This document shows positions 3,128-40,949 of a stretch of DNA of 42,663 nucleotides, piece by piece (position 1 is the first letter of the stretch; the number at the start of each line of letters is the position of its first letter). The DNA is taken from the NCBI GenBank assembly GCA_001824215.1, contig MHWS01000005.1:1219-43881 (forward strand). Reading direction: 5' to 3'. This stretch comes from Candidatus Zambryskibacteria bacterium RIFCSPLOWO2_12_FULL_39_16 (GTDB lineage: Bacteria; Patescibacteriota; Minisyncoccia; Phycocordibacterales; WO2-35-19). A program made the translations under genes and the position numbers. The notes below the pieces were generated by a model. The model was not told the origin of the DNA and did not search any database. It worked only from the letters and a program-made list of their open reading frames with translations.

Positions 3128-3201
3128 GCGCGCGTAGCTCAGTTGGTAGTAGCACCGAGCTTATACCTCGGGGGTCGTAGGTTCGAGCCCTACCGCGCGC
3201 A
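3128..3201 (+). tRNA. tRNA-Ile, anticodon UAU
   Basis: Cloverleaf read by hand: acceptor GCGCGCG/CGCGCGC, D arm GCTC-AGTTGGTAG-TAGC, anticodon stem CCGAG/CTCGG with loop CTTATAC, T arm GTAGG-TTCGAGC-CCTAC, discriminator A. CCA is not encoded. Confidence 0.85.
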
Positions 3202-3228
3202 CAAAAAAGTGAGTTTAAAACTTTAAAA

Positions 3229-5659: not shown

Positions 5660-5772
5660 ATTAATCTGATTTGCCGAGTTAAAACAAAATTCAAAAGTTG
5701 GTTCTACCCCGCAAGAGGCGACCCGAGGACTTTTGCAATTTTGATTTTAATGAGGCAATGATAACATAAAAA

Positions 5773-5788: not shown

Positions 5789-6232
5789 ATGTCGCTAATT
5801 CAGAATAAAAAAGCATATTTTAACTATGAAATCCTTGATAAAATCGAGGCTGGTATTGAATTACTAGGTTTTGAAGTAAAGTCCTTAAAAAAAGGACAGG
5901 GTTCTTTGGAAGGCTCTCACGTCATAGTACGGGGAAACGAAGCATTTGTCGTCAATATGCAGATTCCTCCATATCAGCCGGCAAATACCCCAAAAGATTA
6001 CGATACTACACGAAATCGTCGCCTACTTTTAACCAAAAAGGAAATAGAGAGCTTATCAAAATCAGAAAACCAAAAAGGATTGACAATAATACCTATTTCG
6101 GTGTATAATAAAGGTAGAAAACTTAAATTAGAAGTCGCTATCGTTCGCGGCAAGAAAAAATATGATAAACGCGAAAGTATCAAAAAGCGTGATGTGGAGC
6201 GCGATATCCGAAGAACTTTGAAAAATGAATAG
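5789..6232 (+). CDS. smpB: SsrA-binding protein SmpB
   Basis: NKKAYFNYEI...GIELLGFEVKSL...RNRRLLL...GLTIIPISVY, with a basic C-terminal tail. Lies immediately upstream of tmRNA. Confidence 0.93.
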   Translation: MSLIQNKKAYFNYEILDKIEAGIELLGFEVKSLKKGQGSLEGSHVIVRGNEAFVVNMQIPPYQPANTPKDYDTTRNRRLLLTKKEIESLSKSENQKGLTIIPISVYNKGRKLKLEVAIVRGKKKYDKRESIKKRDVERDIRRTLKNE

Positions 6233-6286: not shown

Positions 6287-6691
6287 GGGGATGATCGGCC
6301 TAGACAATAAGATATATTTGCAAAATGCAAGAGAGAGCCGTAGTGACTCTTAAATCCGCTATAAAAGATAACTGTAAACAAAGTTGTCGCAAAAGCTCAG
6401 TCCGTTGTATCTCCATATTTTGGAGCCAATGACTTCGCTTTCGCTTACGTTAGAACTTAAAAGCTAACCTGAGCGACGTCAAATTCTCTAACGTCTCATA
6501 GGAGAAATTTGGTGTAATAAACTGAGACTCTGAGAAACAGCCGCTTCGCTGTTTCTCGAAATGTAGAAGCTCGATGTTTTAAGATTTTGTTTGTTCCTCA
6601 CTTAAAACATTTAAACAATCAAAACAAACTACCTCTTGTAGAAATTTTTCAAATCTCTTGTTGCATGCGAGTTCGATTCTCGCCATCTCCA
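6287..6691 (+). ncRNA. ssrA: tmRNA (ssrA)
   Basis: 5' GGGGATGATCGGCCTAGAC pairs with 3' CATCTCC, including a G3:U70 pair. T arm GCGAG-TTCGATT-CTCGC, discriminator A. Internal tag frame runs from GCA 6389 to TAA 6458-6460. Adjacent to smpB. Confidence 0.85.
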
Positions 6692-6696
6692 CAAAT

Positions 6697-11732: not shown

Positions 11733-12746
11733 CTATCTGACAATCGAGCGAGAAGCATAAATAGTATATATGTCTCCTATGGATGAAAGACTGCTGGTAA
11801 TCAAAATAGTATTTTTATCAAGGAAAGTATAGGCGATTTTTGCTTGGTTTTTTTGGTTTATTAAGGCCCTAGTATCTTTGTTTTTAACAATCATATCTTT
11901 CCAAATGAAAGAGTCCAGTTTCATTGGTATTTTAACGCTTAGGGTAGTAGATGCAGTACTGGAAGTAGTGGTGGCAGTACTAGTGGCTGTGCTGGTAGGA
12001 ATATTTGCCGTAGTATTAGCAACAACAAAAGAGTCAGTCCTCGCATTCATGAAAGACAGATCTTTTTCCATATTGCTCTCCCAATCAAGCATGCCAGAAA
12101 AAGCGCGACCAAAATCACTTATGGTAATCACAAGAAAATATGAAATTTGGTTATTTTGAAACATTATTCCAACAGCATATTTTTCTTTGATAGTCCTCTC
12201 TAAAGTGGCCGGCAGTGATATCCCTAAAAAACCAAAGAAGTCTTTGGTTGTTTGAAACGAGAGACTATTTTTATCTGATATTTTCAGAATGCTTGCGCCA
12301 TTTGATGGGGACAGTTTAGCAAGTTCTGAATCAAAGTTTTCTTTTGTTATATTGGTCAAGGTAATTAAATTGTTGTATGGGATAACTTTTTCTTCAACAG
12401 CCACTTCACTCATCGGCTCTTTTTTCAAAGCATTAAAAATATAAAAAGAAACCGCTACCCCGCTAGCCAAAAGAACCAGACTCAAAGTGGCTATGATTAA
12501 GTTCTTTTGGAAACCTTCTTTTTTTGATTTTACAACCGGTCTAAGTTTCTCTTCTTCTTTTTCTATTCTTTCCTTTTTTTCTTTTGCTTTTACAGTGATA
12601 GAAACCACCGATTCGTTTTTTTCCTTTATAAATTCAGCCATATCGCCCTGATAGGTGCGCAAAGAAGGAAGCTTCTGCTGATTATGCAAAGTATCAATTA
12701 TCTTTCCAAACTTGTCAGGGTTACCTCCCTTTTTTTCTTCGTCCAT
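11733..12746 (-). CDS. hypothetical single-pass membrane protein
   Basis: 337 aa. Lys/Glu-rich N-terminus, TM LIIATLSLVLLASGVAVSFYIF, external domain with a Thr/Ser-rich tract TSTATSTATTTSSTASTT. Confidence 0.5.
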   Translation of the reverse strand: MDEEKKGGNPDKFGKIIDTLHNQQKLPSLRTYQGDMAEFIKEKNESVVSITVKAKEKKERIEKEEEKLRPVVKSKKEGFQKNLIIATLSLVLLASGVAVSFYIFNALKKEPMSEVAVEEKVIPYNNLITLTNITKENFDSELAKLSPSNGASILKISDKNSLSFQTTKDFFGFLGISLPATLERTIKEKYAVGIMFQNNQISYFLVITISDFGRAFSGMLDWESNMEKDLSFMNARTDSFVVANTTANIPTSTATSTATTTSSTASTTLSVKIPMKLDSFIWKDMIVKNKDTRALINQKNQAKIAYTFLDKNTILITSSLSSIGDIYTIYASRSIVR

Positions 12747-22507: not shown

Positions 22508-22553
22508 TTAAATGATATAATAAGAATACAATATTATAAATAAATCGAAATAA

Positions 22554-22598
22554 GGTCGCACTCTAATCGACGTATCGTGCGACATGATTTCGCTAAAT
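22554..22598 (+). repeat. hairpin + 12-mer motif, copy R3 (sense strand is +, upstream of the SOD gene)
   Basis: GGTCGCAC-tctaatcgacgtatc-GTGCGAC-atg-ATTTCGCTAAAT, then 3 nt, then ATG at 22602. Confidence 0.75.
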
Positions 22599-22601
22599 CA
22601 A

Positions 22602-23198
22602 ATGCAAAAGTTTGAAGAGAAAAAGTTCAACATTCCAAAATTAAAAGGTATTTCGGAGAAAACTATTGAAGAACATCTGAAACTTTATGTCGGGTATGTA
22701 AAAAACTCGAATCTTATTTTGGAGCACATTGAGGAACTTGTAAAAGATGCGGATAAATACGCTTACGAATTGGGTGAAATACAGAGAAGATTTTCTTTTG
22801 AATACAACGGTATGAGAAATCATGAAGTTTATTTTGATTCGTTTTCAAATGAAGCAAAAAATCTCAATGACGAAAGTGAGCTTAAAAAACAAATTAAGTC
22901 TGATCTTGGATCTTTTGAATTATGGTTAAACAGATTTAAAGCGATTGCCCTCACCCGCGGGGTTGGTTGGGCAATGCTTTGGTATGACAGAGGAGACAAA
23001 AGACTTCTTGCTTCTTGGGTTGATGAACAACATCTAGGACAGCTTTCGGGCTGTACGCCAATTCTTGCTCTTGATATGTGGGAACATTCTTATGTTGCTG
23101 ACTACCAGCCAAGCGGCAAGAAAAATTATATTGAAGATTTTTTTGCAAACCTAAATTGGGAAAATGTTGAGAATAATTTCTCAAAAGCACTCAAATAA
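22602..23198 (+). CDS. Fe/Mn-family superoxide dismutase
   Basis: EEHLKLYVGYV, NGMRNHEVYF, LALDMWEHSY (Asp/His ligands). Start set at MQKFEEKKF. The track start at 22584 lies inside repeat R3. Confidence 0.8.
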   Translation: MQKFEEKKFNIPKLKGISEKTIEEHLKLYVGYVKNSNLILEHIEELVKDADKYAYELGEIQRRFSFEYNGMRNHEVYFDSFSNEAKNLNDESELKKQIKSDLGSFELWLNRFKAIALTRGVGWAMLWYDRGDKRLLASWVDEQHLGQLSGCTPILALDMWEHSYVADYQPSGKKNYIEDFFANLNWENVENNFSKALK

Positions 23199-23258: not shown

Positions 23259-24749
23259 TTATGCGTGTCGAGACGAAAGTTTATTTGAGTGCTTTAGTTT
23301 TTTGTTTATTTTATAAAACAAAATAGCGTAACCCAAGTACCAAATAAAAACCACCCAAAGAGGCAATGCGCCGATTGAAATAGTGGCGAAAGGTACCCGA
23401 GCTCCAAATTCGGTAATGCTGATTATTATCTGGGTAAGAAGATATGAGAGAGCGCCAAACGGCCAAGATGAAATTTGAGAAAAAATTCCTAAAGCGCCGG
23501 TTGTCGCTCCGAGAGCCATTGCCCACGGCACCAAAGGTAAAACAATTGGATTGATAATAAAAGAAATTAAAGAAACAAAACCAGACATTCTAATAAGTAT
23601 TGGCAAGACAAAAAACTGAACAGCTAAAGTAGACGAGACAATCTCCCGCAATCCAAATTTTGTCGTAATAAATTTTTGAAATTTATGCTCGGAGATGAAA
23701 GATAAAATCAAAGGAGAGAATAATATAAGCCCCAAAGTTGCCATAAAAGAAAGCTGGAAAGACGGGTCATAAAAAAGAATCAGCGGATTCCAAATAAGCA
23801 TGAAAAATCCTGCAATAAAGAGCCAGCGCAAAGCATCTGCCGGTCTGCCTAAAAATCTGGCAAGGATGGCGATAAGGGCCATGATACAAGCTCTGATAAC
23901 TGTGGCCCCAAGACCGACCATCACAGCAAATAAAATAATTGAAACAGCGCTTATTGCAAAACCAATATTTCTTTTGCCGAGAAAGGACGCCAGATAAAAA
24001 ATACCAATAGCGATAATAGTAATATTGTATCCGGAAAGAACGACAATATGAATCAGGCCCGCTTTTTTGAAATCATCCAATAATTCTTGCCCTAAAGATT
24101 GTTTGACCCCAAAAATAACTCCACCAAGAAGCGAAGAATTCGGCTCCGGTACAACGGCAGATATTTTTTCAATAAAAATATTTTTTATTGAATATAAAAA
24201 AGAAATTGTTTTATTACCTTCTCCACTTCCTATTTTTTCAATTTGTGGATAATAGATTAAAAAATGGATTTTATCTTTTGAAAGATAGGAAATATAATCA
24301 AATTCAACACCGTTATCACTCTCAAAATTTTTTGGTAAGTCCAATTTGCCAGAAACCTTCACTTTGTCTCCATATTGAAATTCGGGGAAGCGGTTTGCTA
24401 TTAATAATACAAGACTTTTAGAAGATATTGGTCTTACCGTGTAACGCGCGGAAGTATCTCTGACATCAGGCTCTTCAAGGATGGCCACTTCAAAAGAAAT
24501 TTTTTGGCCAATGGATTGAGAGAGACTTTGATCGGGAGAAACATCCAAGAAAGCCATTCTTAAAACTCCAAGACAAAGAGCAATGCCGACTATAAAAAAT
24601 ATTTTGGCTAATTTGGAGTTATCTCTCCAAATTACTAAAGTTAAAACTGAAGATAAAATTAAAACAAAAAAACCAATGCTCCATCCAAAATGAAAAATTT
24701 CTTCAAATACAATCCCTATGGTAAATGAAACAACAAATGGATAGATCAT
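23259..24749 (-). CDS. comEC: ComEC/Rec2 competence channel (DUF4131 + Competence domains, no MBL domain)
   Basis: Polytopic membrane protein with an OB-like insert (ARYTV...KVKVSGKL). Core motifs GLIHIVVLSGYNITI and ATVIRACIMA. Confidence 0.85.
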   Translation of the reverse strand: MIYPFVVSFTIGIVFEEIFHFGWSIGFFVLILSSVLTLVIWRDNSKLAKIFFIVGIALCLGVLRMAFLDVSPDQSLSQSIGQKISFEVAILEEPDVRDTSARYTVRPISSKSLVLLIANRFPEFQYGDKVKVSGKLDLPKNFESDNGVEFDYISYLSKDKIHFLIYYPQIEKIGSGEGNKTISFLYSIKNIFIEKISAVVPEPNSSLLGGVIFGVKQSLGQELLDDFKKAGLIHIVVLSGYNITIIAIGIFYLASFLGKRNIGFAISAVSIILFAVMVGLGATVIRACIMALIAILARFLGRPADALRWLFIAGFFMLIWNPLILFYDPSFQLSFMATLGLILFSPLILSFISEHKFQKFITTKFGLREIVSSTLAVQFFVLPILIRMSGFVSLISFIINPIVLPLVPWAMALGATTGALGIFSQISSWPFGALSYLLTQIIISITEFGARVPFATISIGALPLWVVFIWYLGYAILFYKINKKLKHSNKLSSRHA

Positions 24750-24750
24750 A

Positions 24751-24788
24751 ACCTCACCCCTTACCCCTCTCCTGGATGCAGGAGAGGG
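24751..24788 (-). repeat. GC-rich hairpin + GGTGAGGT-tail element, copy A
   Basis: Minus strand reads CCCTCTCCTG-catc-CAGGAGAGGG-GTAAGGGGTGAGGT, then T, then the comEC ATG. Confidence 0.8.
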
Positions 24789-30299: not shown

Positions 30300-30307
30300 T
30301 TAATTTA

Positions 30308-30351
30308 ATTTAGCGAAATTATGTCGCGGCTCCGTCAATTAAGACGCGACC
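30308..30351 (-). repeat. hairpin + 12-mer motif, copy R2 (sense strand is minus, upstream of tpiA)
   Basis: Sense strand: GGTCGCGTCT-taattgacgg-AGCCGCGAC-ata-ATTTCGCTAAAT, then 8 nt, then ATG at 30299. Confidence 0.75.
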
Positions 30352-30362
30352 TCTATTATACC

Positions 30363-34221: not shown

Positions 34222-35436
34222 TTACTGTATAGCGTCTACCAAAGAATATGTCGGTAACATCATAGCAATGGCAAAAATACCTACAGCAATACCCATAAGT
34301 ATCATAAGGAATGGCTCTATTATTGTCGATAAGTCTTTTGTTTTTTGGTCCACTTCGGTCTCATAGTAAGTGGCGATATTGTCTAACATCTCGGTCAATT
34401 TGCCGGTTTCCTCACCAACCGCAAGCATTTCTCCAACAAAAACCGGATAAAGGTTTCCTTTAGAATCCGAGAGTGATTGAGACAAGAGTTCACCGGTTTC
34501 CACTTTTTTGGACGCGCTATTCAGCAAATCTTTAAAATAATGATTTTGGAGAACATCGCTAGTGATGCCGATTGCCGAAAGAATACTCACTCCGGAGGAA
34601 ACAAGGGAAGAAAGAGTTCTGGCCGTCCTAGCAGCATTCACTTCTTTGGTCATAGTTTTAATCATTGGCATATGAAGAAGCACAAAATCGGAAGTATTCT
34701 TGCCATTTTTTGTTTTATGCCAAACAATATAGCTGAATACAGCTACAAAGATAGCCGCCAAAGTTAAAAAAATATTGCCTCTTAGAAAATCACTTATAGC
34801 TATGATAATCCTTGTGGGCAAAGGTAAAACTATGTTAAGCCCTTTAAAAGTCGATGTCAGTGTTGGCACCATATATATCATAAGAACAATACCAATGATC
34901 AACATGAGGCTGACGATAACCGCTGGGTAGATCATGGCTCCTTTTATTTTTTTCGAAAGGCTTTGAGACTTTTCAAGCTGATCAGCAATGATACGCAGAG
35001 AATACGAAAGTTTGCCAGATTCTTCACCCGCTTTAACCATGGAAACAAAGAGATTGGAAAATATGTCCGGATAAGCTTCCAAAGATTTGGATAATGTTTC
35101 TCCCCCACTGACCGAAGCATTTATGTTTTCAAAAACAGCAGTCTGACTTTTATTCTTTGATTGCTTGGAGAGTACAGTCAAAGCTCTGGAAATGGAAAGG
35201 CCGGCATCTATCATTACCGAAAGATTTTTAGCAAAAATGATAACCTGCTGAGATTTCATTTTTTTTCTCAGAGAAAAAAGTTTGATAGAAATTTTTGGAG
35301 ATCCCATTTCCTTAACCGATATTATCGAACCGTTATTAGAGCGTAGCGCCAAATAAAGCGCCGCTTTGTCAGAAAATTCTTTGGTTTCTTCAAATTCTTT
35401 TCCGTCTTTTATATATTTGTATTTATAAAAAGGCAT
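34222..35436 (-). CDS. pilC: type IV pilus / T2SS platform protein (GspF/PilC family)
   Basis: Two T2SSF repeats, three TM helices, and the conserved GEESGKL and GEETGKL motifs. Confidence 0.9.
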   Translation of the reverse strand: MPFYKYKYIKDGKEFEETKEFSDKAALYLALRSNNGSIISVKEMGSPKISIKLFSLRKKMKSQQVIIFAKNLSVMIDAGLSISRALTVLSKQSKNKSQTAVFENINASVSGGETLSKSLEAYPDIFSNLFVSMVKAGEESGKLSYSLRIIADQLEKSQSLSKKIKGAMIYPAVIVSLMLIIGIVLMIYMVPTLTSTFKGLNIVLPLPTRIIIAISDFLRGNIFLTLAAIFVAVFSYIVWHKTKNGKNTSDFVLLHMPMIKTMTKEVNAARTARTLSSLVSSGVSILSAIGITSDVLQNHYFKDLLNSASKKVETGELLSQSLSDSKGNLYPVFVGEMLAVGEETGKLTEMLDNIATYYETEVDQKTKDLSTIIEPFLMILMGIAVGIFAIAMMLPTYSLVDAIQ

Positions 35437-35492: not shown

Positions 35493-37244
35493 TTATTCCG
35501 ACACTACACGCAAAACTTCCTCAATGGTAGTGAGACCTTGAGCTGCTTTGAAGATGCCATCTTCAAGCATAGTGAGCATCCCCTCTTTTTTGGATTGGAG
35601 TTCGATATCTTCGGTAGTAGAACCTTTGATTATAAGATCTTTAATTGCAGTAGAGACGTTGAGTACCTCGTAGATACCGATGCGACTTTTGAAGCCTTCT
35701 TCTCCAGCGTCTTTTTTAGGTTTAAAGAAAGGTATATTTTCCCAGTTGTCGCTTTTACCAACCATCTTCTCTTCTCTAAGAATTTTTAAAACATTATCCA
35801 GATTAACCACTTTGGATATTGAATCTACTTCCGCTTTTGAAAGATAATATTTCTCTCTTTTGTCAGAAAGTTTTCTAACCAGCCTTTGGGCAATAATAGC
35901 GTCAAGAGTGGATATTATAAGAAAAGGTTCGACTTTCATATCAATAAGGCGAGGTACTGCACCGGCAGCCGAATTAGTATGCAAGGTTGAAAGTACCAAA
36001 TGCCCCGTAAGAGAGGCGTTGATAGCGAGTGATGCCGTCTCATTGTCGCGGATCTCACCTACCATTATTATATTGGGATCTTGACGTACCAAAGTGCGCA
36101 ACCCAGTAGCAAAAGTCAGCCCTATTTCCGGCTTAACTTGAGTTTGATTGATTCTTTTCATTTGGTATTCAACTGGGTCTTCAATGGTAGAAATGTTGAC
36201 ACCAGGTGTGTTTAAAATATCCAGCATGGTGTAAAGTGTCGTTGATTTACCGCTACCAGTTGGACCAGTAGTCAGTATCATGCCGGTGGTATGCTGTAAT
36301 ACTTTGTGTAACAGTTCCAGACCCTGTCCATGAAAACCTAAAGATTCCAAAGTAAAGCCTGATACGGATTCACGTAAAAGCCGCATGACCGTTTTTTCAC
36401 CATAATAGACAGGCAAAGTGGAGACGCGAAAAGAAACTTTTTCTCCATTCATATCGATTTTAAATCTGCCATCTTGAGGCAATCTTTTTTCATCAAGTTT
36501 CAAACTGGAAAGCACTTTGATGCGGGCCACCAACGAATAGCCGATATGTTTTGGTAAAATCATGGCGTCATGCAAGATACCGTCAATTCTATACCTGACT
36601 AAAATCTGGTCTTCCAAAGGTTCTATGTGAATATCGGAAGCATTTTGGATAATGGCATGCTTGAGCAAAGTATCTACGATCCGCACTACTGGCAATTCTT
36701 CAGCCAATTTTTTAAGATCACCTTCAGAAGCGCTTTCGGCTGGCAACTTATCGGATATAGTCTTGATTTCATCAGAATCGATTTTTATAAGGTCGCCAAA
36801 TTCGTCCTTAAGGTTTTTCTGGTATTGGATTAAGGCTCCCCGCATTGATTCAGAGTCGGTCAGGCGAGGTAATATTTTCAGCCCCACTTTTTTCTTTATT
36901 GAATTTAAGGCTTGCAAGTCATCGGTATCGAGCATAGCAACCTCAAGAGAATCGTCTTTTTTTTCAAAAGCGATTATGTTGTGCTTTCTGGCAATTGGTT
37001 CGGGGATAAGACTTAGAATTTCATGGTTTAGAACCTGCCCTTTCAAATTTATGAAAGGAATACCGAGGATATAAGCTTGAACCCGACGCAAATCATCATC
37101 AGAAAACTTACCTTTTGATATGAGGATTTCGCTTATCGGTTTCTTTTTTGATTTGGCTTCTTTTTCCACTTCCTCCACTTCTGATTTGGAGATAAGCCCG
37201 GCATCAATAATAAAATTTTTTATTTGTGAATCTTCTACATGCAT
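35493..37244 (-). CDS. pilB: type IV pilus assembly ATPase (GspE/PilB family)
   Basis: N-terminal GSPII_E-type domain, Walker A GPTGSGKST, Asp box, Walker B IIMVGEIRD, His box TGHLVLSTLHTN. Confidence 0.93.
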   Translation of the reverse strand: MHVEDSQIKNFIIDAGLISKSEVEEVEKEAKSKKKPISEILISKGKFSDDDLRRVQAYILGIPFINLKGQVLNHEILSLIPEPIARKHNIIAFEKKDDSLEVAMLDTDDLQALNSIKKKVGLKILPRLTDSESMRGALIQYQKNLKDEFGDLIKIDSDEIKTISDKLPAESASEGDLKKLAEELPVVRIVDTLLKHAIIQNASDIHIEPLEDQILVRYRIDGILHDAMILPKHIGYSLVARIKVLSSLKLDEKRLPQDGRFKIDMNGEKVSFRVSTLPVYYGEKTVMRLLRESVSGFTLESLGFHGQGLELLHKVLQHTTGMILTTGPTGSGKSTTLYTMLDILNTPGVNISTIEDPVEYQMKRINQTQVKPEIGLTFATGLRTLVRQDPNIIMVGEIRDNETASLAINASLTGHLVLSTLHTNSAAGAVPRLIDMKVEPFLIISTLDAIIAQRLVRKLSDKREKYYLSKAEVDSISKVVNLDNVLKILREEKMVGKSDNWENIPFFKPKKDAGEEGFKSRIGIYEVLNVSTAIKDLIIKGSTTEDIELQSKKEGMLTMLEDGIFKAAQGLTTIEEVLRVVSE

Positions 37245-37247
37245 ACG

Positions 37248-37291
37248 ATTTAGCGAAATCGTGTCGCCCCAACGTCAATTGAGGGGCGACC
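37248..37291 (-). repeat. hairpin + 12-mer motif, copy R1 (sense strand is minus, upstream of pilB)
   Basis: Sense strand: GGTCGCCCC-tcaattgacgtt-GGGGCGAC-acg-ATTTCGCTAAAT, then 3 nt, then ATG at 37244. Confidence 0.75.
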
Positions 37292-37316
37292 CAGAGCACG
37301 ACTTTACTTCTTTTTA

Positions 37317-37325
37317 ATTATACCA
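37317..37325 (-). promoter_or_regulatory. extended -10 promoter element upstream of R1 and pilB
   Basis: Minus strand reads TGgTATAAT. This would place R1 inside a leader of roughly 65 nt. Confidence 0.45.
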
Positions 37326-40085: not shown

Positions 40086-40124
40086 CCCCTCTCCTGCTTC
40101 TAGGAGAGGGGCTGGGGGTGAGGT
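40086..40124 (+). repeat. GC-rich hairpin + GGTGAGGT-tail element, copy C
   Basis: CCCCTCTCCT-gcttct-AGGAGAGGGG-CTGGGGGTGAGGT, then 12 nt, then the xth ATG. Confidence 0.8.
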
Positions 40125-40136
40125 ATTATTATAAAT

Positions 40137-40949
40137 ATGAAAATTGTATCTTGGAATGTAAATGGTCTACGAGCAGTGCATAAAAAGGGGCTGTTTTTGT
40201 CTTTTGTGGAGAAATACAAACCAGATATTATTTGTTTACAAGAAATCAAATCTCAAAAAGATCAAAATGAGTTTGATTTGAAAGAATATGAAGAATACTG
40301 GAACCCAGCAGAAAAAGCTGGTTATAGCGGCACTGCCATATTCAGTAAAGAAAAACCGATTCAAGTAATTTTTGGCTTGCCGGATGATTTATGTAAAAAA
40401 TACAGTATTGAAAATGATGTTTATGGAGACCCAAATAAAGAAGGTCGTGTTTTAATAGCTGAGTTTAAGGATTTTTTCGTTGTAAACGTTTACACTCCAA
40501 ATTCCAAGCCAGATTTGAGCCGTCTTGGTCTCCGCCATAAAAAATGGGACCCAATATTCCTGGAGTATGTCCTTCGACTTCACTCAGGACAAGTAAATAA
40601 AAAAGGAAAGAATGTTATTTTCTGCGGTGATTTAAATGTGGCTCACACTAAAGATGATCTCGCCAATCCAAAACAAAATGAAGGTGGACATGGTTTTACT
40701 AAAGAAGAAAGAGAAGGGATAGATAAAATTATAAAAGACGGGTTTATTGATACCTTTCGCCATTTTACCAAGGGAAATGGGCATTATACTTGGTGGACAC
40801 ATTGGGCAAATGCCAGAGAAAGAAACGTGGGCTGGAGAATAGATTACTTTTTTGTAAACAAAGAATTTATATCTAAAATCAAAACGTCAGAAATTCTTCC
40901 TGACGTTTTGGGTTCGGACCACTGCCCTATTTTACTCGAAATCAAATAG
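40137..40949 (+). CDS. xth: exodeoxyribonuclease III
   Basis: SWNVNGLRA, CLQEIK, CGDLNVAH, GFIDTFR, WRIDYFF, GSDHCPI. Confidence 0.93.
   Translation: MKIVSWNVNGLRAVHKKGLFLSFVEKYKPDIICLQEIKSQKDQNEFDLKEYEEYWNPAEKAGYSGTAIFSKEKPIQVIFGLPDDLCKKYSIENDVYGDPNKEGRVLIAEFKDFFVVNVYTPNSKPDLSRLGLRHKKWDPIFLEYVLRLHSGQVNKKGKNVIFCGDLNVAHTKDDLANPKQNEGGHGFTKEEREGIDKIIKDGFIDTFRHFTKGNGHYTWWTHWANARERNVGWRIDYFFVNKEFISKIKTSEILPDVLGSDHCPILLEIK
40571..40593 (+). repeat. GC-rich element in frame within xth
   Basis: CCTTCGACTTCACTCAGGACAAG, encoding LRLHSGQV. Near-identical to the CapA copy apart from a 1-nt indel. Confidence 0.65.

Follow-up and report, generated by a model that had tools for sequence, protein, structure and literature searches.

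What kind of sequence would stand, in nearly the same form, ahead of the start codons of three unrelated genes? The question arises from a stretch of 42,663 nucleotides (nt) of Candidatus Zambryskibacteria bacterium RIFCSPLOWO2_12_FULL_39_16 (contig MHWS01000005.1, positions 1,219 to 43,881), the whole of which is called the window here. The repeat precedes the genes of a pilB-type ATPase (copy R1), tpiA (copy R2) and a superoxide dismutase (SOD; copy R3). A reading of the letters without database searches, the sequence-only reading, had described these copies as sharing one architecture in the sense orientation of the gene downstream, and its coordinates hold for all three. The explanation favored here, to which about an even chance is given, is that the repeat represents a new family of small palindromic mobile elements, similar to the Rickettsia palindromic elements (RPEs), that persists as the last part of messenger RNA (mRNA) leaders and serves as a portable start-site module. 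The element is probably undescribed, mobile, transcribed into mRNA leaders, and not a regulator of pilB.

Anatomy and covariation of the two hairpins

The element is ∼45 nt long, occurs in a single class of ultra-small bacteria, the Paceibacteria, and consists of two unlike, adjacent hairpins, termed P1 and P2. P1 is GC-rich, with a constant base (GUCGC/GCGAC), an upper stem that is variable yet paired, and a loop of 10–16 nt in which an A-rich stretch is followed by (G)GACG. Lining up the copies revealed that the 12-mer ATTTCGCTAAAT is the core of P2, which reads NNN-ATTT-CGCT-AAAT-N'N'N' and has the consensus (A)YGAUUU-CGCU-AAAUCR(U). The 12-mer had been described as a conserved, near-palindromic unit in its own right; its conservation holds and its separateness does not, since it forms the heart of a covarying hairpin. 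The outer pairs of P2 covary among the window copies (ACG/CGT in R1, ATA/TA in R2, ATG/CA in R3) and take the forms ATG/CAT, ACG/CGT, ATA/TAT, and GTA/TAT across genomes.

Identification of further copies relied on a pattern scan (GTCGC-N8-30-GCGAC-N2-4-ATTTCGCTAAAT) of one genome per GTDB species, which returned 66 loci, nearly all of them in metagenome-assembled genomes (MAGs) of Patescibacteria. The depositors' labels for these loci are Paceibacterota, Nomura-, Zambryski-, Taylor-, and Magasanikbacteria, and Minisyncoccia, with a few automatic labels such as Saccharibacteria and Gammaproteobacteria. A covariance model was built on 67 copies; the final alignment, which is fitted to that model, holds 78 copies from MAGs of Paceibacteria (Patescibacteria), most of them retrieved by an exact 22-nt pattern. 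Across the 78 copies, 98.3% of the stem cells form standard pairs and 9 of the 13 pairs are changed on both sides, with none of 500 shuffles as good, while slid-partner controls left 20–50% of the cells paired. The covariance-model search also returned divergent copies in which P1 is compensated even at its 'fixed' bases (GCCGC/GCGGC, GTTGTGC/GCACAAC, GCCGGCC/GGCCGGC) and P2 carries compensatory changes of its own (TGATC/GATCA, ATGATTC/GAATCAT). This strong covariation points to a conserved RNA secondary structure with both helices under selection, as had been supposed from the compensatory stem changes of the three window copies.

The window was read on both strands. The composite of GTCGC…GCGAC and ATTTCGCTAAAT occurs in it three times, each on the sense strand of the next gene, with the 12-mer 3 nt 3' of the GTCGC…GCGAC hairpin and 3–8 nt 5' of the ATG. 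All three exact occurrences of the 12-mer lie beside such a hairpin, and GTCGC-N8-30-GCGAC is itself found three times against an expectation of 0.11. When up to two mismatches are allowed, the 12-mer alone is no more frequent in the window than expected by chance; hence the significance resides in the composite. Copy R1 has a minimum-free-energy fold composed of P1 and P2 (−25.2 kcal/mol, z = −2.6), its P2 includes the 12-mer (37248-37259), and the 3' end of P2 is flush with the ATG of pilB (37244-37242). P1 is likewise present in the minimum-free-energy structure of R3. The density of the element is three copies in the window and none in ∼10 kb of adjoining sequence, taken from a contig on which the first gene of the window recurs.

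Additional observations concern the surroundings and the limits of the structure. No consistent complementarity between the P1 and P2 loops, as judged by eye, suggested a pseudoknot. The three bases 5' of P1 follow the consensus A-G-(C/A/G) in the 78 aligned copies, the third thus not being T; AGC in this flank is complementary to the GCU of the P2 loop CGCU, and a pseudoknot of this kind is possible, the loop itself hardly varying. At one locus (L025:5643-5669; loci are cited by handle and internal position), a P1-type hairpin is followed by ACGATTC and lies 7 nt ahead of a transfer RNA (tRNA) gene, tRNA-Thr (5677-5750), from which it appears that P1 can exist without P2, ahead of another structured RNA. 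The element itself gave no tRNA-like fold in ARAGORN and Rfam searches. A covariance-model match in a Burkholderiales MAG (L032; 21.8 bits, in GC-rich DNA) was taken as chance. An intrinsic terminator was considered for R1 and set aside: the consensus scan detected no U-tract there, and P1 is followed by AYGAUUU, which is paired inside P2.

Genomic placement of the copies

With gene starts inferred from open reading frames (ORFs) and homology, 57 of the 78 copies (73%) have, 0–20 nt past the P2 core, the ATG of an ORF no shorter than 50 amino acids (aa), as against 7.9% for random placement in the same loci (p ∼1e-45). The tight link to start codons seen in three window copies thus extends to the family, and a covariance model, as had been proposed, yielded both covariation and a sense, start-proximal bias in the loci retrieved. 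Between 2 and 20 nt separate the element from the ATG, most often 3 nt (29 of 56), and these three bases (CAN) usually prolong P2, so that the helix finishes flush with the AUG. Among the model-found copies in loci not seeded on them, seven out of eight are in sense orientation and at most 20 nt 5' of a gene start. In no copy is the interval from the element to the ATG occupied by a Shine-Dalgarno sequence. The P1 loop was considered for this role and rejected: AAGGA(C/G)G is found in many loops, though not in those of the window copies, and what is conserved at the core is GACG; the GGA, not present in the window copies, lies ∼35 nt 5' of the AUG.

The genes downstream include those of ribosomal proteins S19 (in four genomes), L2, L22, S18, S12, L9, and L31; rpoC (in two genomes), gyrA, dnaG, dnaJ, frr, secE, and tatA; and SOD, PPDK, glyA, murG, ftsW, RNase III, and response regulators, these names resting on sequence reading, with a Pfam check on the three window genes. 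They are heterogeneous housekeeping genes and hence form no coherent regulon. Some copies begin 3–4 nt past a −10-like box, and others 0–9 nt past the stop codon of the upstream gene. Copy R3 is on the plus strand amid minus-strand genes, which indicates that the orientation of the element tracks transcription rather than the chromosome strand.

The reported box TGGTATAAT is present at 37325..37317 and would put R1 within the pilB leader; a promoter consensus scan at R1 found no −35/−10 pair that matched. In the window at large, a Shine-Dalgarno sequence is missing from most of the 40 long ORFs, and in many a TATAAT-like box stands 6–10 nt from the ATG (for example, upstream of 11733-12746, 5789-6232, and 34222-35436), which suggests that leaderless or very short-leader mRNAs are widespread. 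The pilB and SOD orthologues of relatives have a TATAAT box followed by a 6–29-nt AU-rich leader. Unusual arrangements of the element comprise a copy nested in the P1 loop of another (L029:4925-5010), a tandem pair 21 nt apart (L050:260-383), and, between convergent genes, a copy set inside a terminator-like GC stem (L040:4230-4310). Two copies are antisense or 3' of genes (L018, L043).

A second setting is the interior of genes. The ORF-internal copies are all 42 nt long, in sense orientation and in the sole stop-free frame, where they encode the peptide xRxxxDGxRHDFAKS. Such copies lie within ksgA (L011), trmD (L045), and a gene with a TfoX_N domain (L061), and at the N-terminal end of an RluB-like gene (L003); for TrmD and TfoX_N, the Pfam alignment runs through the insert. 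TrmD orthologues 73–85% identical to the query were compared, 120 in number besides the entry of the query itself, and the peptide is present at one Lys-rich loop in 8 of the 120. These eight carriers are scattered over a neighbor-joining tree and their junctions differ, consistent with repeated insertion at a trmD hot spot, and the peptide variants (RV..TR versus RA..AR) preserve the pairing of P1. Most of the non-carriers have an empty loop, and many others carry inserts there that are unrelated to the element. The surroundings of trmD in three genomes showed no copies other than those within the ORF.

The unrelated inserts in the trmD loop were found in two loci (L154:10184-10315 and L155:10190-10321) and in proteins P0009, P0019, P0020, P0030, P0043, P0048, P0051, P0058, and P0107. 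The longer ones add ∼20 aa, and the two inspected as DNA are both partly palindromic. Judged from these inserts, the trmD loop is a candidate general insertion hot spot, and other small insertion-element families appear to exist in Paceibacteria.

Comparison of orthologous sites revealed filled and empty states. The rpoB-rpoC spacer is 16–19 nt long in two genomes and ∼70 nt, including the element, in two others. Syntenic SOD loci are filled in three lineages (the window, L030, and L150/L151) and empty in two (L152, L153). In the SOD copy of L150, P2 reads ATGGTTT/AAACCAC, a compensatory change from A-U to G-C relative to the window. The window and L150 form the one SOD pair not chosen by the search pattern; they are 91% identical over the element, 70% over the 60 nt upstream, and 76% over the first 180 coding nt. 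The pattern-selected pairs display the same trend of an element better conserved than its flanks, but are biased. Of the contigs with the same PilB, the five that can be read at the site, which come from different samples of Hainich and other aquifers, all have an identical R1, and a sixth has a scaffold gap there; R1 is fixed within the window's species. Flanking direct repeats are no longer than in shuffled pairings, giving no sign of a target-site duplication, and no gene for a RAYT (Y1 transposase) was seen in the loci examined. Presence and absence at orthologous sites, together with more than one independent insertion, point to a mobile repeat.

The element also affects annotation. An ATG at 22584, in the 5' arm of R3 P2, is in frame with the SOD start, and the resulting 204-aa ORF starts with MISLNQM (22584-22604). 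This extension is present in 1 of 120 SOD homologues, namely the window's own database entry, and is therefore probably an annotation artefact produced by the element.

The coordinates of the window copies and of other features are collected in Table 1. Besides the element, the window harbors a second repeat family, AGGAGAGGGG-NNN-GGGGTGAGG, with two copies where none is expected by chance; both lie just 5' of ORF starts. Elsewhere, the trmD-rpoB spacer of ∼200 nt in two genomes (L067:10640-10830 and L068:10685-10895) has conserved blocks, such as ttgacaaaa…aaatagagtaggcta and gattcattgattgagt, and may be a structured rpoB leader.

Table 1. Positions of the three element copies, their associated genes, and other features in the window
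Feature	Coordinates	Strand	Remarks
R1 hairpin P1	37263..37290	-	arms GTCGCCCC (37290-37283) / GGGGCGAC (37270-37263)
R1 P1 loop	between 37283 and 37270	-	tcaattgacgtt; 12-nt loop tcAATTGACGtt
R1 hairpin P2	37245..37262	-	ACGATTT (37262-37256) / CGCT / AAATCGT (37251-37245)
R1 covariance-model match	37243-37294		66.6 bits
pilB-type ATPase gene	35493..37244	-	Pfam T2SSE and MshEN; orthologues begin at the same MHVE... residues
TGGTATAAT, extended −10-like box	37317..37325	-	26 nt 5' of R1 P1; sequence reading
R2 hairpin P1	30323..30350	-	GTCGCGTCT / taattgacgg / AGCCGCGAC, one U-C mismatch
R2 hairpin P2	30305..30322	-	(A)TAATTT / CGCT / AAATTA(A); 12-mer 30319-30308
R2 covariance-model match	30303-30354		62.8 bits
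tpiA start codon	30299-30297	-	TIM domain Pfam match (triosephosphate isomerase)
TATAAT	30360-30355	-	4 nt 5' of R2 P1; sequence reading
R3 hairpin P1	22555..22583	+	GTCGCAC / tctaatcgacgtatc / GTGCGAC
R3 hairpin P2	22584..22601	+	ATGATTT / CGCT / AAATCA(A); 12-mer 22587-22598
R3 covariance-model match	22551-22603		68.5 bits
SOD start codon	22602	+	Fe/Mn superoxide dismutase Pfam match
Second repeat family, copy 1	24752-24773	-	within a GC-rich palindrome; 5' of ORF 23259-24749 (-)
Second repeat family, copy 2	40102-40123	+	5' of ORF 40137-40949 (+)
tRNA-Ile gene	3128-3202		anticodon TAT
tmRNA gene	6287-6694		beside smpB (5789-6232)

Explanations for the start-codon association

According to the mechanism proposed here, the family would spread by insertion into AT-rich leaders and spacers, and repeatedly into A-rich coding DNA, in genomes that would mostly use leaderless mRNAs or short AU-rich leaders. 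Copies would persist as the final 45 nt of the leader of an mRNA, in sense orientation and with the 3' arm of P2 0–3 nt from the start codon, or in the sole stop-free frame within genes, where they would add their peptide (xRxxxDGxRHDFAKS) to the protein. The element is presumably transcribed, and its two self-contained hairpins may keep the AUG unpaired, while the invariant nucleotides of the loops and stem base would be contacted by a putative conserved trans-acting factor, whether the ribosome, an RNA-binding protein, or a nuclease. The result would be a portable, Shine-Dalgarno-independent start-site module that leaves the recipient gene translatable, possibly with a more stable message. 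Conserved nucleotides in the loops and at the stem base, the covariation, and the close fit of the helix to the AUG lead us to infer recognition of the RNA form by a conserved factor and the role as a start-site or leader module. A more specific version, in which the ribosome or a leader-trimming endonuclease recognizes the two-hairpin RNA and permits Shine-Dalgarno-free initiation at an internal AUG, is offered tentatively and is unlikely to be correct in full; if true, it would make the element a transposable bacterial counterpart of the internal ribosome entry site (IRES) or of mitochondrial punctuation.

Several points weigh against a start-site module. A stable hairpin flush with the AUG would normally hinder, rather than aid, binding of the 30S subunit. 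The retrieval of copies by an exact pattern inflates the apparent sequence conservation and limits the sites able to show covariation. Folded as single sequences, R2 favors an alternative that joins the 5' arm of P1 to downstream sequence, and R3 replaces P2 by local alternatives. A covariance-model search of the loci of pilB orthologues with 41–91% identity found no copies in 642 kb (80 metagenomic loci); even relatives with 91% identity have pilB leaders that are short, AU-rich, and unrelated, and R1 is thus specific to the window's species. Patchy occurrence, absence from close relatives, and a low density (∼3 copies/55 kb here) are what would be expected of a selfish element, and no transposase and no trans-acting factor was identified.

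The main rival is a purely selfish element that targets A-rich DNA. The hairpins would then be single-stranded DNA recognition structures for a transposase (e.g. HUH/Y1), the start-codon and sense-orientation biases would arise from the preference for A-rich DNA combined with purging of harmful insertions, and the RNA would have no role. Independent insertions do recur in one A-rich trmD segment that hosts other palindromic inserts, orthologous sites are both filled and empty, copies may be nested, in tandem, or in a terminator loop, the density is patchy, and the flanks are AT-rich. Such an element would nevertheless be expected to fill neutral sites upstream of promoters and downstream of genes, which are larger targets yet rarely filled, whereas 73% of the copies end at an ATG; the ATG-side junction is not sequence-specific in the ORF copies, and neither a target-site duplication nor a transposase was found. 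Nor does selfishness readily explain an orientation that tracks transcription, as with R3, an orthologous copy that carries a compensatory change and is better conserved than its flanks, or toleration ahead of rpoC, ribosomal protein genes, and others that are essential and highly expressed. A selfish element without an RNA role is thus possible but rather unlikely.

If the RNA does have a role, it could be that of a processing, or 'punctuation', signal: a host endonuclease would cut at the 3' foot of P2 and free near-leaderless mRNAs, in the manner of mitochondrial tRNA punctuation, which would let operon-internal genes use the leaderless route of translation. The end of P2 lies 0–3 nt from the AUG in most copies, many copies stand within operons directly past the upstream stop codon, leaderless-type promoter geometry is common in the window, and the P1-only copy lies just ahead of a tRNA, itself a processing signal. 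Yet the spacing to the ATG varies from 2 to 20 nt, copies directly past a −10 box would gain nothing from cleavage, relatives translate the same genes from 6–29-nt leaders that lack the element, and no nuclease was identified; this explanation is considered improbable. Still less credence is given to a cis-regulatory RNA dedicated to a regulon with pilB, tpiA, and SOD among its members, whether as a riboswitch or as a leader that binds a protein; this was the first option of the sequence-only reading. Conserved, covarying loops and stems, the 5' untranslated location, and the over-representation of ribosomal protein and transcription genes among the hosts would suit it. The hosts, however, are heterogeneous and differ between genomes, the pilB, rpoC, and SOD orthologues of relatives lack the element, other copies lie in frame inside ORFs, an element of only ∼45 nt has no supported pseudoknot or junction for a ligand pocket, and Rfam has no match even at E<=10. 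A gene-specific regulator of pilB, tpiA, and SOD was accordingly abandoned, since the pilB orthologues are without the element and the downstream genes have little in common. An action at the DNA level, with the 12-mer as the operator of a dimeric repressor or with TTGACG and TAAAT as the −35 and −10 of a promoter, is scarcely credible. P2 is indeed an inverted repeat in DNA and the window loops contain TTGAC, but the P1 pairs and outer P2 pairs covary instead of fixing bases, which tells against the operator, most loops read GGACG and not TTGAC, the −35/−10 spacing would be 19–21 nt with just 3 nt left to the ATG, and the strand-specific placement is unlike that of a symmetric operator.

The mobile, leader-borne module remains the favored explanation of this unusual association. 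No family of in-frame palindromic insertion elements, a kind best known from Rickettsia, would have been described before it in Patescibacteria (the candidate phyla radiation), and it would indicate that streamlined genomes, too, carry proliferating repeats that reshape proteins, such as TrmD and KsgA, and mRNA leaders. Sense placement flush with starts in Shine-Dalgarno-poor genomes would offer a concrete way to study how these uncultured bacteria define their translation starts. For annotation, the in-frame ATG in P2 can make gene callers add a false MISLNxM extension and in-frame copies make annotated proteins longer; copies can be flagged with the covariance model.

Relation to known systems

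Searches for a known counterpart were negative throughout. The three window copies have no Rfam match at either gathering scores or E<=10, in line with the sequence-only reading, which gave it no named match, and no copy was found among IMG/VR viral contigs, INPHARED phages, or PLSDB plasmids. A literature search returned nothing on a motif of this kind, nor on palindromic elements that insert into patescibacterial genomes, and for the 12-mer only chance matches in two unrelated papers. The 3' end of 16S ribosomal RNA, sought for a complementarity test, is not present in the examined loci.

The closest likeness is to the RPEs, which enter unrelated housekeeping genes in frame, bring no stop codon, and extend the product by a conserved peptide (PMC10969869). 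The element shares with them the palindromic form, the in-frame, stop-free insertion into unrelated genes (here trmD, ksgA, and the TfoX gene), the additional presence in non-coding DNA, and orthologous sites that differ between genomes in being filled or empty. RPEs are ∼100–150 bp long and confined to Rickettsia, whereas the element is ∼45 nt long, has two unlike hairpins and resides in Patescibacteria, size and host being what sets the two apart here. A further difference is that ∼73% of the element copies are start-proximal and in sense orientation; to our knowledge, RPEs have not been described as flush with start codons in sense orientation.

REP sequences are extragenic, lie mostly 3' of genes, are often clustered in alternating orientation, have a GTAG head, and are associated with RAYT transposases. 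The element resembles REP/BIME repeats in being a short, GC-rich, imperfect palindrome present in many repeats with a maintained stem, and co-transcription with genes is usual for REPs. It differs from them in being start-proximal, in one orientation, mostly solitary, present also inside ORFs, and equipped with a second, AU-rich hairpin. Of the proposal that the repeat is a REP-like mobile module, the mobility gains support from the in-frame ORF copies, the reinsertion in trmD, and the filled and empty sites, whereas the orientation, position, and architecture of REPs are not found.

The Correia/NEMIS, ERIC, BOX, and RUP repeats form mRNA hairpins that may be cut by RNase III or RNase E or may alter mRNA stability (PMC10969869). 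[quoted passage not shown] MITEs have terminal inverted repeats and target-site duplications and span 50–500 bp, as opposed to the two separate hairpins of the element, for which no duplication was found.

Systems that shape translation starts provide the remaining comparisons. Phage T4 genes 25 and 38 have hairpin-bridged ribosome-binding sites, and Shine-Dalgarno-independent enhancers exist. Like the structured T4-type initiation leaders, the element has a stable hairpin ahead of the AUG, and many P1 loops, reading AAGGA(C/G)G, are Shine-Dalgarno-like; the window loops (UUGACG/UCGACG) are scarcely so. Mitochondrial tRNA punctuation differs from the element by its tRNA fold; the resemblance, one of position in the sequence, is that of a compact structured RNA placed directly ahead of start codons in a leaderless-translating system.

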